Assembly (NCBI GenBank): GCA_039801885.1
Contig: JBDRVN010000043.1
Location: 1 to 14,161, forward strand
Direction: 5' to 3'
Source: a candidate division WOR-3 bacterium
GTDB lineage: Bacteria > Hydrothermota > Tepidihabitantia > Tepidihabitantales > DTDR01
DNA: 14,161 bases
Positions 3,001-9,000 of the stretch are shown here, piece by piece. The position numbers are program-made. Each line of letters opens with the position of its first letter. Position 1 is the stretch's first letter.

Positions 3001-6000
3001 TCATGAAAAAAAAAGTCAATAAGAAAAATTAATTTTTTAATTTCAATTTCGTCCTTATTTTTCAAGGATTTTTTGAAATTATAAAAATTTATTTAACAAA
3101 ATACAATAAAAGGTATGTGAAATTATGGCAGGGAGAAATTATATTTTTATTTAATCTCTAAATAAGGAAAGATTTTTTTAATTTCTTCTTCCGGCAGAAT
3201 TTCATAATGGGAGAAATGCATTGAATAGGTTGCCCGACCAGAAGATAAGGAACGGATAGCAGTAGCATAGCCAAAAGTTTCTTTTAAAGGGACTATACCT
3301 GATAAGACACGATATTCTTTTATTACTTCTATATTTAACACTTTTCCCCTTCTTGCTATTAAATCATTGATAATTACACCAACATATTCTTCCGGTGTTA
3401 GAATTTCTATATTCATTATTGGTTCTAATATAGTGGGATTGGCATTTTTATAGGCTTCATTAAAGGCATTGTTAGCCGCCATTTGAAAAGCAAAATCAGA
3501 GGGGTTTTCTTTGTTATAATTACCATCAAGAATTTCAATTAAGATATTAGTTATTGGATAACCAATTAATAGACCACTATTAGCAACACCTATTAAAGTT
3601 TCTTCTATTTTCGGATAAAAAATTTCTGGAATTTTATCTTTATCAAGATTGAAAATAATATTAATTCCTCTATCTTTGGGTGATAATTTAATAGTTATTT
3701 CTGCTTGGTGTAATTTATTGTCAATTATCCGGGAGAATTTGCCAATACCGATACTCTCTTTTGTAATTGTTTCCCGATAAGATACCTGTGGTTTACCAAT
3801 ATGGCAAGGAACTTTATAGTCTCTTTGTAATCTATCGGTAATAATTTCTAAATGTAACTCACCCATTCCCATAATTATTCTTTGACCAGTTTCTTCATCG
3901 TATTTTATTTTGAATGTTGGGTCTTCAATAGAAAGAAGTTCTAAACTCTCTTGTAACTTTTTCTCATCTTTCCTTGTCTTTGGTTCAATAGTAGCAAATA
4001 TTACCGGCTCAGGAAAAGTTAAAGGTTCAAAAGCAATTGGTGCGTGTAAATCACAAAGAGTATAACCAGTTTTCACATTTTTCAATCCAACAATTGCTCC
4101 AATCTCACCGGCTTTTAACTCTTCTACTTCTTCTTGTTTATTAGCATGCATTAATAATATTTTATTTACTCTTATCTTTTCCATTGTTGGCACAACTAAG
4201 ATTTGTTTACCAATCCTAATCTTTCCGGAATATATTCGGAAATAAGAAAGCAAACCACGATTAAAATCGTTCTGGATTTTAAAAATCAGAGCAGATAAAG
4301 GCTGAGAAATATCGGCTTTTCTTTCTTCTACATTATTATTTTTTGGATGAAAACCAACTACCGGTGGTAGGTCAATTGGTGATGGCAAATAATCAACGAT
4401 TGCATCTAAAAGTGGTTGGATTCCTTTGTTTTTTAAGGCACTACCACATAATACCGGATAGAATTTCAAACTTAAAGTTCCTTTTCTTATTGCCTTTTTT
4501 ATTAAATCAATTTCTATTTCTTCTCCTTTAAGATATTTTTCTAATATCTCTTCATCTTCTTCTGATAAAATTTCTATCATTTTTTCTCTCATTAATTTTG
4601 TTTTCTCTTTATAATCATCCGGTATTGGTAATTTATCATATTTTGCTCCCAAGGTTTCTTCATACCAAATATATAAAACCTGTTCAACCAAATCGATCAC
4701 TCCTTGAAAGTATTCTTCTGCTCCATAAGGAATTTGAATAGGCAAAGGTTTTAAAGATAATCTCTCTTCCATCATTTTTATTACCCTTTCAAAGTCAGAG
4801 CCAATTCTATCAAGTTTATTAACAAAAGCAATCCTGGGAACTTTATATTTATCAGCCTGATGCCATACGGTCTCTGTTTGTGATTCTACTCCACCAACTC
4901 CACAAAAAACAATTACTGCTCCATCTAAAACTTTTAAACATCTTTCTACCTCAATTGTGAAGTCTACATGACCTGGTGTATCAATAATATTAATCTGATG
5001 GTCTTTCCAAAAACAAGTGGTGGCTGCAGAAGTAATGGTTATTCCCCTTTCCTTTTCCTGAATCATCCAGTCCATTGTAGCAGTTCCTTCATCTACTTCA
5101 CCCATTCGATAAATCTTTCCGGTATAATATAAAATCCTCTCGGTCGTTGTTGTCTTACCTGCATCAATATGAGCAGCAATCCCAATATTTCTTATTCTTT
5201 TTATATATTCCATATATTTTATCAATTTTAATAAAACCAAGTAATTAGTCAATTTAATTAACTATAAAATATTGTATCAGGAAGTTATCTTTATGTCTAT
5301 ACAAGTATTTGATTTATAAAAACTTATAAATATATTACCATTTTTGCTATTTTGTGAGGGGTTATATTTAGATAGCAATATTCCTACGGATTATTTAAGC
5401 CCTACAAAATTATGAAAAATAAGCTTAATATTAAAGTCATTAATAAGGCGAATATTATTAGCATTAATAAAGATATTATTATTCACATTAATAAAATTAT
5501 TATTATTCATATAAGGAAGACCTACCCTGTATCATTCTCTCCACGGGAATTTTTCTTCCCTATTAACAACACTTGAATAAAAGGCTCTACAGGTAAAATA
5601 TCGAATTTTATTCTAATTTGCAAATTTTCTATTAAATTAATAACCATTTTAATAATTATAGCAAAAATAAAAGATTTGTAAAGATAAAATTTGTTTCCAA
5701 TTGTAAATTTGTTAATAAAAGAAATCATACCATAATAAGAATGAAGTCTTTTTATTATTAATTTATAACCCTTATCTTAACACATTTACTTTTTTTCGTT
5801 GACTTTATAAAAAATATTATTAAAATATTAATGATGTATTCAAAATCGGAGGTTATTATGAAAAAATACCTTCCTTTATTATTTACTTTAATTTTTATTT
5901 CTTCTCTCTATTCAGCAGAAAGGGTTGTTGTTGCTGAAGAAGCCTACCAAGAAGGTTGAGGTTCCTGTGCGACAGCCAGCAGTGTGCTGGATCAAGTAGT

Positions 6001-9000
6001 CTCAATATATCCAACAAGAATTGCTGCAATTGAAATGCATATCTCTTCGACTTATCCACTTTATTGTGCAGAGGCAAGAAGTAAAATGTATATGTATCCA
6101 CCTCCTTATTATTATAATGGTCAATGGTATTATGTAACTCCTTATATGTGGTACGATGGTAAAAAAGGTGGCACAAGTTATTATAATTGGCAATATCTTT
6201 TGGAACAAAGAATGGGAGTTACTTCTGATTTAAACTTTGAATTTTCCGGTTGGTATAATCCAAATACGAGAAATGGTCATATTGAATTGACAATTACTAA
6301 CGAATCTGCTAATCCAATTACTGGTCGGCTTCAATTTGTTATTACTGAAGATAGTATTTATTACTCAGCACCAAATGGCGATGTTTGGCATAATCATGTC
6401 GCAAGAGATTATCTACCCGACCATAATGGTGAAATAATTACCGTGCCAGCAAATGGTTCTATTTCCCGAAGTAGAGATTTTACTATTTCTACTAATTGGA
6501 ATCCTGATAAATGTAAAATAATTGCCTTTTTACAAGATGATAACCTTCAACCCGATTCAACAAAAGAGGTTTATCAAGGTGGAATGATTAATATTAGGGA
6601 ATTGACTGCTATTAGCGAAGTGACTAATATTTCTCCAAAACTTACTTTTATTTTCAATACCGGTAAATCAAAAATTAAATTAACCTGTGAAAACAAAGGT
6701 GAGTTTGTGCTTCAAATATTTTCTACTGACGGAAAAATTCTTCAGACAATCAAAGATTACTTTTCTGGCAAAGAGAAAGAACTTTCTCTTAATCTGAAAA
6801 CCAAAGGAATTTATTTCTACAAACTAAACTTTTCCGGTAAGGAATACCAAGGAAAACTTATTAATCTACAGTAATTAATTTTATTTTATTTATTTTATTT
6901 TTGGGCGGAGTTCTAAATTCTCCGCCCTTTTATTTTTATTAAATTATTGACAGATATTTATATTTAGTTATTATTTAATTATGGGAGCAATTGAAACATT
7001 AAAAGAAAAAAAGATTAAAGCACCGCAGGGAAAAAGTTTATCTTGTAAAGGTTGGCATCAAGAGGCGGCATTAAGAATGCTTTGTAATAACTTAGACCCG
7101 GAAGTTGCCGAAAAGCCAGAAGAATTGATTGTTTATGGTGGTTGTGGAAAGGCAGCAAGAAATTGGGAATGTTTCTATGCGATTGTTGAAGCATTAAAAA
7201 ATTTAGAAAATGATGAAACCCTTTTAATCCAATCAGGAAAACCAGTAGGAATATTTAAAACCTTTCCTTATGCACCAAGAGTTTTGATTGCCAATTCTTT
7301 ATTAGTTCCGGCTTGGGCAACTTGGGATTATTTTAGAAAATTAGAAGCAATGGGACTAATAATGTATGGCCAAATGACCGCAGGTAGTTGGATTTATATT
7401 GGAACACAGGGAATTATTCAAGGAACTTATGAGACCTTTGCTAGTTGTGCCAAAAAACATTTTGGCACTTCTTTAAAAGGAAAATGGGTATTGACTGCGG
7501 GAATGGGCGGAATGTCTGGTGCCCAACCATTAGCAGTAACAATGAACGAAGGAGTAATTTTGGATGTGGAAGTTGACCCAAAAAAGATTGAAAGAAGAGT
7601 AAAACAAGGTTTCTGCGATATGATGGTTTTTGATTTGGATGAAGCATTAAGATTGGTCGATGAAGCAGTAAAAAAGAAAATTCCCCGTTCTATCGGTTTA
7701 GTTGGTAATGCGAGTGATATCCATCCAGAATTAGTAAAAAGGGGAATTATTCCTGATGTTTTAACTGACCAGACATCGGCTCACGATGAGTTAAACGGCT
7801 ATGTTCCGGGAAGGATGAGTTTAGAAGAAGCATTAGAATTAAGAAGAAAAAATCCCGAAGAATATATTAAAAGAAGTTATGAATCAATGGCAAGGCAAAT
7901 GGAAGCAATGCTTGAAATGCAAAAGAAAGGTGCGATTGCTTTTGATTACGGAAATAATATCCGTGGTCAAGCCTATAAAGGCGGAGTAAAAGAGGCTTTT
8001 AACATTCCTGGTTTTGTTTTAGAATATATTAGACCGCTCTTCTGCGAAGGAAGAGGTCCTTTTAGATGGGTCGCTTTATCAGGAAATAAACAAGATATCT
8101 ATCTTACTGATAAGCTTGTTTTGGAATTATTCAAAGATAATGAAATCTTAATTCGCTGGATTAAACTTGCCGAAGAAAAAATACCTTTCCAAGGTTTGCC
8201 AGCAAGAATCTGTTGGCTTGGCTATGGAGAGAGAGCAAGATTTGGATTAGAGATTAATAAATTAGTAAGAGATGGAAAGATTGAAGCACCAATTGTTATT
8301 GGCAGAGACCATTTAGATACTGGTTCAGTGGCTTCACCAAATAGAGAGACAGAAAAAATGAAAGATGGTTCAGATGCAATTGCTGACTGGCCTATTCTTA
8401 ATGCTTTATTAAATGCGGTATCAGGTGCTTCTTGGGTATCGGTTCATCATGGTGGCGGAGTTGGCATTGGTTATTCAATTCACGCGGGACAAGTTATTGT
8501 TGCTGACGGAACAAAAGAAATGGACGAAAGATTAGAAAGGGTATTAACCAATGACCCAGGAATTGGTATTGTTCGTCACGCTGATGCTGGATATGAAAAA
8601 GCCATTGAAGTTGCCCAAAAATATAATATCAAAATTCCAATGTTAAATTTTCAAAAAGAAGAGAAGAAGAGAAAATAAGATAAGAAAGAAAGTTCTTAAT
8701 TCCTTTAGACAATTCTTAAAAGAAGGTTTTCTTTCAATAATTTTAATATTTTTGCTTTTATTAAAAGCAATTTTCTCTTCATAATAAATAAATAGAGAAT
8801 ATTCAACTAAAAAGAAAATAATAATTCCCAAATAGAGAAGAATTGGCATTTTTAAAAGCTGGAGAAAACCTACTAAGATAAAAAAATTTCCTAAATAAAT
8901 GGGATGTCTAAAATAACGATAGATTCCATTTACAACCAAAAATTCATTTCTAAATTTTAAAGAATAGCCAATATCTCCTAAATATAGATAGCCAAGGATG

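Follow-up and report, generated by a model that had tools for sequence, protein, structure and literature searches.

Bacterial thioredoxin-fold selenoproteins in which Sec replaces a Cys of the redox motif (UxxC/CxxU) are known families. Two curated models describe Omp28-related proteins: NF045500 covers those of Omp28 type that have an in-frame Sec, and NF033782 covers the Omp28 family outer membrane lipoproteins. The closest structure to the protein considered here is HBP35 of Porphyromonas gingivalis (PDB 5y1a), in which a thioredoxin-like domain bearing a dithiol-type motif stands at the N terminus, followed by a beta-sandwich and the C-terminal domain (CTD) of type IX secretion system (T9SS) cargo. 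According to PMC2907840, C48 and C51 of HBP35 are required for insulin reduction, i.e., its CxxC is catalytically active, and the protein also binds hemin and supports growth when hemin is limited. A second structural relative is Atu2684 (PDB 2axo), a thioredoxin-like CxxC protein. Here we describe an Omp28-related selenoprotein (Omp28Sec) encoded in a window of 14,161 nucleotides, the whole stretch of DNA analyzed, from contig C43 of the candidate division WOR-3 genome G000.

A selenocysteine gene at 5858 to 6874

Positions 5858-6874 of the forward strand constitute one real selenocysteine gene, interrupted in frame by TGA 5957-5959 and misannotated at present. The gene and its signals are as follows.

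5858..6874, + strand: Omp28Sec coding sequence of 338 codons and a TAA stop; alternative in-frame start at 5831
5848..5852, + strand: GGAGG ribosome-binding site, read from the DNA, 5 nt ahead of ATG 5858
5799..5826, + strand: promoter-like site TTGACT-16-TAAAAT (10/12), weak, as the region has 15 such sites vs 12.2 expected from shuffles
5957..5959, + strand: TGA read as Sec, U34 counted from 5858 and U43 from 5831; same site in 92/92 homologues
5957..5968, + strand: U-G-S-C redox motif, aligned with thioredoxin CGPC; U and C invariant in 32/32 N-domains
5975..5991, + strand: SECIS-like hairpin, stem 5976-5981/5985-5990, loop GUG 5982-5984, 16 nt after the UGA

A preliminary description placed the reading frame at 5831-6874, with the TGA in the context EG-U-GSC. 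The TGA, its context and the stop codon (TAA 6872-6874) stand, but we prefer ATG 5858 as the likelier start because it is preceded by GGAGG and because orthologues, such as those in G002 and G004, begin at MKKY. The same description held that public-style gene calling splits the gene; it is instead truncated, the call for the window gene itself being 5984-6874. Of the 277 homologues in public records, the 120 that match best cover only 55-86% of the Omp28Sec query, and since public gene calls begin after the TGA, the signal peptide and active site are lost from them. DNA contigs belonging to two coded runs also span the TGA (5957-5959), with no variant base listed at these positions.

The position of the TGA is identical in all 92 homologues, which represent 10 families within candidate division WOR-3, and the protein is conserved on both sides of it (ERVVVxEExYxEG-U-xxC). 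Cys occupies the Sec position, as CxxC, in the four TGA-less homologues examined (4/4). TGA-bearing homologues (E<1e-40) are found in 43 of the 61 genomes of the order to which G000 belongs. The genome of G000 also encodes the Sec machinery, with tRNA-Sec present and selB (366.8 bits), selA (564.8) and selD (320) each scoring over its cut-off.

The hairpin that had been noted after the TGA is supported by covariation across the 92 genes, although not by the fold of the single sequence. In the alignment its seven base pairs are paired in 85.7% of cases, vs 18-42% for slid partners, and compensatory changes are evident, with pair 24-30 being CG in 44 genes, UA in 38 and UG in 7, and pair 25-29 being GC in 36 and AU in 27. 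Doubly changed cells number 70, vs 26.8+/-11 in shuffles, and none of 500 shuffles reached 70. The 48 nt after the UGA are more stable than other windows in the same gene (mean z -1.6), and they fall in the lowest 5% in 37/92 genes. A 70-nt fold around the window TGA was not significantly more stable than shuffles (z -0.16), the post-UGA window of the GC-rich f2 genes was not unusually stable (percentiles 0.1-0.7), and an Rfam search matched no family. As the hairpin lies within coding sequence, its conservation is partly due to the peptide ASxxL. Judged by sequence, the window gene appears to have the attributes of a bacterial selenoprotein gene, namely a conserved UGA, a stem-loop, Cys homologues and a genome with Sec machinery.

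Domain architecture and predicted export

The protein is expected to comprise an export signal, two folded domains and a sorting domain.

5858..5917, + strand: N-terminal signal peptide MKKYLPLLFTLIFISSLYSA, no lipobox Cys, helix at residues 5-16 in the model, putative cleavage site
5918..6217, + strand: thioredoxin-like domain, model residues 21-120, matched by HBP35 (Z 24.8), 2axo (Z 19.0) and profile alignment
6224..6607, + strand: Omp28 beta-sandwich domain, spanning model residues 123-250, conserved motifs ITEDS and PNGDxWHNHVxRDY, matched by 2r2c (Z 9.6)
6665..6871, + strand: T9SS type A C-terminal sorting domain, TIGR04183 26.3 bits (cut-off 23), matched by T9SS CTD chains (Z 8.1-9.1)

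In the AF2 model (pLDDT 90.8), U34 and C37 are situated between a strand (24-30) and a helix (37-50), which is the placement of the thioredoxin active site, and the UxxC profile aligns both to thioredoxin CGPC and to the CasC of 2axo (E 4e-4). HBP35 superimposes on the model with an rmsd of 2.4 over 225 residues (Foldseek E 7e-14), and the match to 2r2c has an rmsd of 1.9 over 104 residues. Assignment of the second domain is consistent with the score of 63.9 for Pfam PF11551 Omp28 (gathering score 34.9), and PNGDxWHNHVxRDY, a His/Asp/Arg motif, is nearly invariant within this domain.

The signal peptide ends LYSA-ER, without a Cys, and is of the Sec type that would carry the protein over the inner membrane. 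The sorting domain would then pass it to the T9SS, and anchoring at the surface is suggested by analogy with P. gingivalis cargo. The Pfam model for the T9SS tail, PF18962, scored 24.3, under its gathering score of 27. Many other G000 ORFs carry a T9SS-type tail, and two are PorU-like (256-261 bits vs a cut-off of 420); a search for SprA_N found no match anywhere, the controls likewise being without a match.

Genomic relationship to Sec-CBM

Omp28Sec was initially presented as the conserved genomic partner of Sec-CBM, a selenoprotein with a CBM-like domain. Such a pairing of genes is evident in families f5, f6 and f7, where coordinates and fetched loci place Omp28Sec directly before Sec-CBM on the same strand in 23 genomes, including those listed earlier by coordinates (G009, G016, G019, G021, G116, G171, G173 and G176). 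Among genomes with both genes the tandem is found in 9/9 of f5, 8/10 of f6 and 6/6 of f7, and the intergenic gaps, subtracted from coordinates, are 9-257 nt, with 13 of the 23 being 40 nt or less. As a general rule, and for G000, the partnership is not supported, as the pair is adjacent in none of the 33 f1-f4 genomes with both genes (G039 and G052 are unjudgeable because of contig ends). In a tree of the 92 genes, the window gene is in a 34-gene clade (SH-aLRT 99) that has zero tandem members, and all 23 tandem genes are on the other side.

In G000 the flanks of Omp28Sec are an EF-G-like gene and, downstream, urocanase. The latter stands where the tandem arrangement would have a Sec-CBM gene, and it lies past an intrinsic terminator.

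6903..6935, + strand: intrinsic terminator composed of GGGCGGAG, a 9-nt loop, CTCCGCCC and a T-run; -16.6 kcal/mol, z -4.9, 0/200 shuffles as stable

A separate terminator scan missed this element because it allowed loops of 3-8 nt only. In G000 the Sec-CBM gene follows an unrelated ORF of 379 aa on contig C1, which bears out the earlier caveat that the two genes are on different contigs (C43 and C1), and the neighbors of both are unrelated. We also confirmed the lipoprotein selenoprotein reported on C29, the other Omp28-like selenoprotein of this genome, which has a lipobox. Omp28Sec stands alone in G000 and its clade (f1, f2 and f4), with its own terminator in G000.

Co-occurrence was assessed in a phylum sample of 201 genomes, tallied by hand, and an order sample of 61 genomes. 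The nested pattern reported earlier was reproduced in the phylum sample, with the 47 genomes having a TGA-bearing homologue (E<1e-40) all falling within the 56 that are Sec-CBM-positive and none among the other 145, and of the 43 Omp28Sec-positive genomes in the order sample, 42 also have Sec-CBM. Sec-CBM occurs without Omp28Sec in 11/53 positive genomes of the order sample and 9/56 of the phylum sample. Only one of the 56 Sec-CBM-positive genomes lacks selA, and the 12 genomes that possess selA but neither of the two genes are mostly from other classes. We therefore consider that the co-occurrence largely reflects the Sec trait together with shared ancestry.

The tandem may represent a selenoprotein gene island, brought about by co-regulation by selenium supply or by joint transfer, with no specific relationship between Omp28Sec and Sec-CBM, an explanation that we regard as somewhat less likely than not. 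In G019, selA, selB, Omp28Sec and Sec-CBM follow one another on one strand (the selB that had been reported to adjoin this pair scores 333.6 bits), in G190 selA comes directly after a stand-alone Omp28Sec paralogue, and in G021 and G208 selA is 6-9 kb off on the same contig. Five of the six f7 clusters add a third, unrelated exported selenoprotein (a BNR/Sortilin-like propeller with LEGSG-U-GNAELY) and a second Omp28Sec copy, and the arrays of G021, G171, G187, G213 and G225 have two Omp28Sec copies. However, the immediate order Omp28Sec then Sec-CBM is constant in 23/23 cases from three families, which a loose island need not produce, and most other Sec-CBM copies, as well as the selD selenoprotein gene, are outside these clusters.

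The contents of the clusters (selA-selB, BNR propeller) fit such an island as well as they fit a specific module. In the latter case the two proteins would form a dedicated two-selenoprotein extracytoplasmic module across the group, G000 included, in which the thioredoxin-like UxxC protein would act on the single Sec of the CBM-like domain by reduction, oxidation or docking. The short-gapped same-strand tandems of f5-f7 are consistent with this, as are the nesting of Omp28Sec genomes within Sec-CBM-positive ones (47/47 and 42/43), the T9SS tails on both proteins, and the Sec-CBM motif, in which Sec is the invariant residue and the flanking Cys vary, so that its selenol could require a partner. 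We nonetheless consider a dedicated module rather unlikely given the lack of adjacency in f1-f4 and throughout the clade of the window gene, the unrelated neighbors of both genes in G000, and the 9 to 11 genomes that have Sec-CBM and no Omp28Sec. No coupling of the two is seen beyond the class, with Sec-CBM in 4/6 and Omp28Sec in 1/6 genomes of f13, and distant TGA-bearing Omp28 homologues in 3/3 and Sec-CBM in 0/3 genomes of f21. Copy numbers are also unequal, with G049 having up to nine Sec-CBM genes vs one Omp28Sec. Gene order suggests that the f5-f7 paralogues or orthologues encoded directly upstream of Sec-CBM may act on or with it. A broader proposal, which is speculative and which we consider unlikely, is that this WOR-3 class possesses a T9SS-delivered extracellular selenium redox system in which Omp28Sec would serve the lone selenol of Sec-CBM and, in one genus, also the Sec-bearing BNR propeller, the tandem operon being ancestral and the partnership being kept in G000 though the genes drifted apart.

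Function and comparison with known systems

On the whole, we think it probable that the window gene encodes a secreted thioredoxin-fold selenoprotein that is Sec-decoded, surface-exported and likely an oxidoreductase, and that it does so here as a stand-alone gene. Decoding of TGA 5957 as Sec would be aided by the downstream hairpin and would draw on the tRNA-Sec, SelA, SelB and SelD of the genome. The Sec would take the place of the N-terminal attacking Cys of a CxxC, giving U-G-S-C where helix 1 of the thioredoxin-like domain begins. By analogy, the most likely function would be that of a cell-surface selenol/thiol-disulfide oxidoreductase, because the two-domain body is shared with HBP35, for which disulfide-reductase activity of the CxxC has been measured.

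As HBP35 also binds hemin, Omp28Sec could instead function chiefly by binding hemin or some other ligand at the surface, in the manner of HBP35/Omp28, the UxxC then being structural or regulatory rather than catalytic. The nearly invariant motif of the Omp28 domain itself is in keeping with such a role. However, Sec is costly and almost always catalytic, the motif keeps its U and C in every N-domain compared, and the CxxC of HBP35 is itself active; a predominantly binding role is accordingly improbable. We give almost no credence to TGA 5957 being an ordinary stop, with the true gene at 5984-6874 and the upstream frame open by chance: although this is the model used by gene callers and public records, a conserved upstream protein with a signal peptide, the first thioredoxin strand and the active site lies before or at the TGA in 92/92 genes, export of a T9SS cargo would be impossible in the absence of a signal peptide, Cys homologues exist, and the hairpin covaries.

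The window protein is close to, and distinct from, several described groups. Its scores against the curated models (NF045500, 61.7 bits; NF033782, 63.2; TIGR04183, 26.3) were exactly those given in the preliminary description. Like the NF045500 proteins it is Omp28-type with an in-frame Sec, and its residues 29-259 align to positions 37-272 of that model, spanning the Sec site (U43), but its score is under the cut-off of 200, a value reached by no gene in the 61 genomes of the order (0/61). Scores this low indicate that these proteins form their own clade, outside the reach of the curated model. It differs from the lipoproteins of NF033782 (cut-off 150) in having no lipobox, with the T9SS tail expected to provide the anchor instead. 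The architecture of HBP35 is shared, but at only 12% identity, with Cys in HBP35 vs Sec here, and HBP35 is from another phylum, the present protein being from a hot-spring WOR-3 bacterium. In the comparison with Atu2684, the Sec corresponds to the attacking-Cys position of the CxxC. Relative to that protein and to the thioredoxin-fold UxxC/CxxU selenoproteins, Omp28Sec differs in that it joins its thioredoxin-like domain to an Omp28 domain and is predicted to be exported by the T9SS.

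The Omp28Sec gene and decoding of its in-frame TGA

The plus-strand frame runs from ATG 5831, or from a second ATG at 5858, to the TAA at 6872-6874, and its sole interruption is a TGA (5957-5959) within EEAYQEG-U-GSCATAS, where U is selenocysteine (Sec). In the preliminary description the gene was placed at 5831-6874; its frame, TGA and stop codon are retained here, while the start is moved to 5858, based on a GGAGG (5848-5852) situated 5 nt 5' of this ATG and on the MKKY N-terminus of the orthologs in two sister species. We refer to this gene and its homologs as Omp28Sec. The standard ORF listing has only 5984-6874. 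The features of the window are as follows:

2-1342, 1339-2229, 2247-3065 (minus strand): consecutive ORFs of 447, 296 and 272 aa, no Pfam match at E 1e-5
3147-5252 (minus strand): EF-G-like GTPase, neighbor of Omp28Sec
5858-6874 (plus strand): Omp28Sec
5975-5991: hairpin 3' of the UGA
6903-6935: GC-rich hairpin followed by a T-run
6981-8678: urocanase, neighbor of Omp28Sec
9991-11334 (minus strand): predicted cargo gene of a type IX secretion system (T9SS), with DUF5074 and Por_Secre_tail
11378-13006 (minus strand): predicted T9SS cargo gene without a match in a Pfam search; over the C-terminal end (11384-11605) it matches the tail that belongs to Sec-CBM, a second selenoprotein family

The hairpin at 6903-6935 was missed by the terminator scan owing to its loop limit and was folded separately (-16.6 kcal/mol, z -4.9 against shuffles). 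Given this terminator hairpin and the identity of the two neighbors, Omp28Sec is a stand-alone gene in this genome.

The genome (G000; 1.56 Mb, 30.9% G+C, 91% complete) encodes the Sec machinery, with tRNA-Sec, selB (366.8 bits), selA (564.8 bits) and selD (320 bits), the last itself containing one TGA. The TGA position is identical in all 92 Omp28Sec genes that we fetched, which carry ten family codes and share the motif ERVVVxEExYxEG-U-xxC, and aligning 32 N-terminal domains shows the U and the C three residues on to be invariant. All four of the TGA-less homologs examined have Cys at the Sec site, each within a CxxC. Of 61 genomes from this order, 43 have a homolog with an in-frame TGA at E<1e-40 (hand tally). 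In the phylum the figure is 47 of 201 sampled genomes, among them two additional families, elsewhere in the class, whose genomes contain as many as 5-6 copies. The TGA is also covered by DNA contigs of two coded runs, with no differing letter listed there. A genome-wide reassignment of TGA to Trp or Gly is ruled out, as TGA also terminates genes (a gene on contig C29 of the same genome and an Omp28Sec of another, G025) and the homologs show Cys rather than Trp.

A 6-7 bp hairpin (CCAGCA-GUG-UGCUGG in the window) is conserved 16 nt 3' of the UGA. In the 92-gene alignment 85.7% of hairpin cells are paired, versus 18-42% when the partners are slid, and the pair at 24-30 reads CG (44 rows), UA (38) or UG (7), that at 25-29 GC (36) or AU (27). 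Doubly changed cells number 70 versus 26.8+/-11 in shuffles, none of 500 shuffles reaching 70, although these figures overstate independence because the rows are related. In several of the changes a synonymous third base of Ser is paired with a replacement of Val by Thr, an argument for constraint at the RNA level. From the window sequence alone, the 70-nt fold of 5951-6020 was no better than shuffles; the hairpin region of the GC-rich genes of family f2 (f-numbers denote WOR-3 families) was not unusually stable, and no Rfam family was matched when the window was scanned at gathering thresholds. At the recoding site, conservation of the nucleotides goes beyond that of the protein: the 41 nt at 5951-5991, which span the TGA and hairpin, are matched on their own by contigs of other organisms with 2-3 differences (hot-spring coded runs), and the flanks of these contigs resemble f2-type orthologs. 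Coded runs with small word shares were left aside in naming habitats.

Two RNA-library contigs also include the TGA: one of 615 nt, from a relative ~93% identical, with 33 nt upstream, and a near-identical one of 163 nt with only 28 nt upstream. These were not counted as evidence of transcription since such libraries may also hold DNA.

Genomic association of Omp28Sec with Sec-CBM

In f5 loci, the gene of ~640 aa that follows Omp28Sec was identified as Sec-CBM. Pfam has no match to its N-domain, the model of which (pLDDT 90.7) is a jelly roll like those of carbohydrate-binding modules (Z 11-15.6). One Sec is invariant, while the flanking Cys vary (GC-U-xGHC, TC-U-GAS, SG-U-GT). The family occurs in 53 of the 61 order genomes, where the N-domain has ~140 matches, nearly all with one TGA, and up to nine copies (nine places on contig C1 of G049). 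The frames range from ~200 to 1669 aa, and the Sec-bearing jelly roll therefore heads many architectures. The Sec-CBM gene of G000, on contig C1, is preceded by an unrelated ORF of 379 aa.

Tandem pairs, in which Sec-CBM directly follows Omp28Sec on the same strand, were counted by coordinates, and the 23 tandem genes were then confirmed in fetched loci.

Tandem pairs by WOR-3 family
f5: 9 of the 9 genomes with both genes
f6: 8 of 10; of the remaining two, one lies where its contig ends
f7: 6 of 6
f1 (4), f2 (25), f3 (1), f4 (3): 0 of 33; two end at a contig edge and are not judgeable
f10, f11, f13: none seen; two at contig ends

The 92 genes were placed on a tree by maximum likelihood (quick search in IQ-TREE, LG+G4, SH-aLRT support only, midpoint rooted), in which the window gene falls in a clade of 34 genes (support 99) from f1, f4 and f2 plus one long f11 branch. 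None of these 34 is a tandem gene; all 23 tandem genes lie on the other side of the tree, in at least five groups. In f7 the window protein finds its closest BLAST match in a stand-alone paralog, not in the tandem copy. The proposed role of Omp28Sec as conserved genomic partner to Sec-CBM holds for three families (f5, f6 and f7) and does not extend to G000 or to the clade of its own gene.

The nested co-occurrence of the two families reported earlier is real: in the phylum sample 47 genomes have both, nine have only Sec-CBM and none has only Omp28Sec. The corresponding order counts are 42, 11 and one, with seven having neither; one of the seven, G042, has a TGA-less partial Omp28Sec-like match (residues 101-344). 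In the phylum sample selA was found in 67 genomes, including 55 of the 56 with Sec-CBM, and 12 selA-positive genomes, ten of them outside the class, have neither gene. In G003, a 98% complete genome of the same genus as G000, no selA, Omp28Sec or Sec-CBM was found, the only relative being a Cys-type 563-aa Omp28 paralog (CEDFTATWCWYCPGA); the entire Sec trait thus seems to have been lost inside this genus. Outside the class the two families part ways: in f13 Sec-CBM is present in four genomes versus one with Omp28Sec, and in f21 three genomes contain TGA genes of a distant Omp28 type, with Sec-CBM in none. Any two selenoprotein families spread across a clade would produce such nesting anyway.

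The gene clusters are explained at least as well by a selenoprotein island as by a two-protein module. In G019 (L022, C37:1-8000) selA, selB, Omp28Sec, Sec-CBM and a short Sec-CBM-like ORF form one minus-strand run, so that Sec machinery and client genes are clustered; selB (333.6 bits) is indeed adjacent, as had been stated. In five of the six f7 genomes, all of one genus, the order is Omp28Sec, Sec-CBM, a propeller gene and a second Omp28Sec. The propeller (L045:1662-3914, minus strand, in G173; also L050, L053, L055 and L057) is a 750-aa BNR/Sortilin-Vps10-like protein with a T9SS tail and LEGSG-U-GNAELY (U414), and from its sequence is a candidate third exported selenoprotein; its homolog in G000 (C35) has no TGA. 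Against an island stand the strict order and immediate adjacency in 23 of 23 tandem cases, which make a specific link between Omp28Sec and Sec-CBM plausible in the tandem lineages. In G190 (C10:32701-35279, L046) selA lies ~200 nt after a stand-alone Omp28Sec paralog on the same strand.

Relation to known families

Omp28Sec belongs to the Pfam Omp28 family (PF11551, 63.9 bits; gathering score 34.9). The scores in the preliminary description were reproduced to the decimal (NF033782 63.2, NF045500 61.7, TIGR04183 26.3); NF045500, the NCBI Omp28-related selenoprotein family, has a threshold above this value that is reached by no gene in the 61 order genomes, and by that curated threshold Omp28Sec falls outside the family. 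Taken with the invariant TGA site, the hairpin, the Cys homologs and the Sec machinery, its identification as a divergent Omp28-related selenoprotein stands: Omp28Sec is a real, unannotated thioredoxin-fold selenoprotein, exported according to its signals, and a new clade of a known kind.

Public records of the homologs begin 3' of the TGA; among 277 matches, the best 120 cover 55-86% of the query. The family is thus systematically mis-annotated, and since these records drop the signal peptide and active site it is invisible to selenoproteome surveys. In the literature library that we searched, no description of the family was found, whether as an Omp28 selenoprotein, a thioredoxin-like Omp28 protein, a T9SS-exported selenoprotein or a selenoprotein of WOR-3, and to our knowledge exported, surface-displayed bacterial selenoproteins are rare.

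The lipoprotein selenoprotein previously noted on C29 (19559-20287; L002:1414-2142), the second Omp28-like selenoprotein of G000, was also seen, with lipobox FLISC, VLVEIFTQAG-U-PFC, FLTEDS and a TGA stop; it too scores below the cut-offs of NF033782 (51.1 bits) and NF045500 (47.6 bits). Genomes of f2 have a further family of ~600-aa Omp28 paralogs with one TGA (G058:C47:10413-11123) or none (G030:C2:410588-411295), apparently another Sec/Cys pair within the superfamily.

Predicted fold and comparison with HBP35

In the AlphaFold2 model of Omp28Sec, built from 55 sequences (mean pLDDT 90.8), a signal helix is followed by a thioredoxin-like domain (residues 21-120) and a beta-sandwich (123-250); beyond a disordered linker, another beta-sandwich (272-336) forms the C-terminal part. 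In an all-against-representatives structural search, HBP35 of P. gingivalis matched both body domains (Z 24.8, rmsd 2.4, 225 residues) and it also ranked first in Foldseek (E 7e-14). Other matches were 2axo, a CxxC protein of thioredoxin-like type (Z 19.0), 2r2c, an Omp28 domain (Z 9.6), and T9SS sorting domains in secretion complexes (Z 8.1-9.1). A search with SprA_N gave no match, either in the genome or in the controls. The N-domain profile puts U-x-x-C on the thioredoxin CGPC and the CxxC of 2axo. HBP35 is described in PMC2907840 as a T9SS cargo that requires both active-site cysteines for insulin reduction, and as binding hemin.

With its fold, motif position and export signals established, Omp28Sec is best read as a surface-displayed selenol/thiol-disulfide oxidoreductase in which Sec would be the attacking residue, because of the fold match to HBP35, the placement of UxxC on CGPC and insulin reduction by HBP35; activity and surface anchoring are inferred from this analogy. 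Together with the expanded Sec-CBM family, Omp28Sec points to selenium-dependent chemistry at the cell surface of hot-spring WOR-3 bacteria, and the tandem pairs of f5-f7 offer a concrete substrate candidate, Sec-CBM, for trapping by Omp28Sec. Omp28Sec lacks a lipobox, unlike the C29 protein, and hence does not belong to the Omp28 lipoproteins. Being a naturally occurring Sec form of the HBP35/Omp28 architecture, it would allow Sec to be tested against Cys in an extracellular thioredoxin fold.
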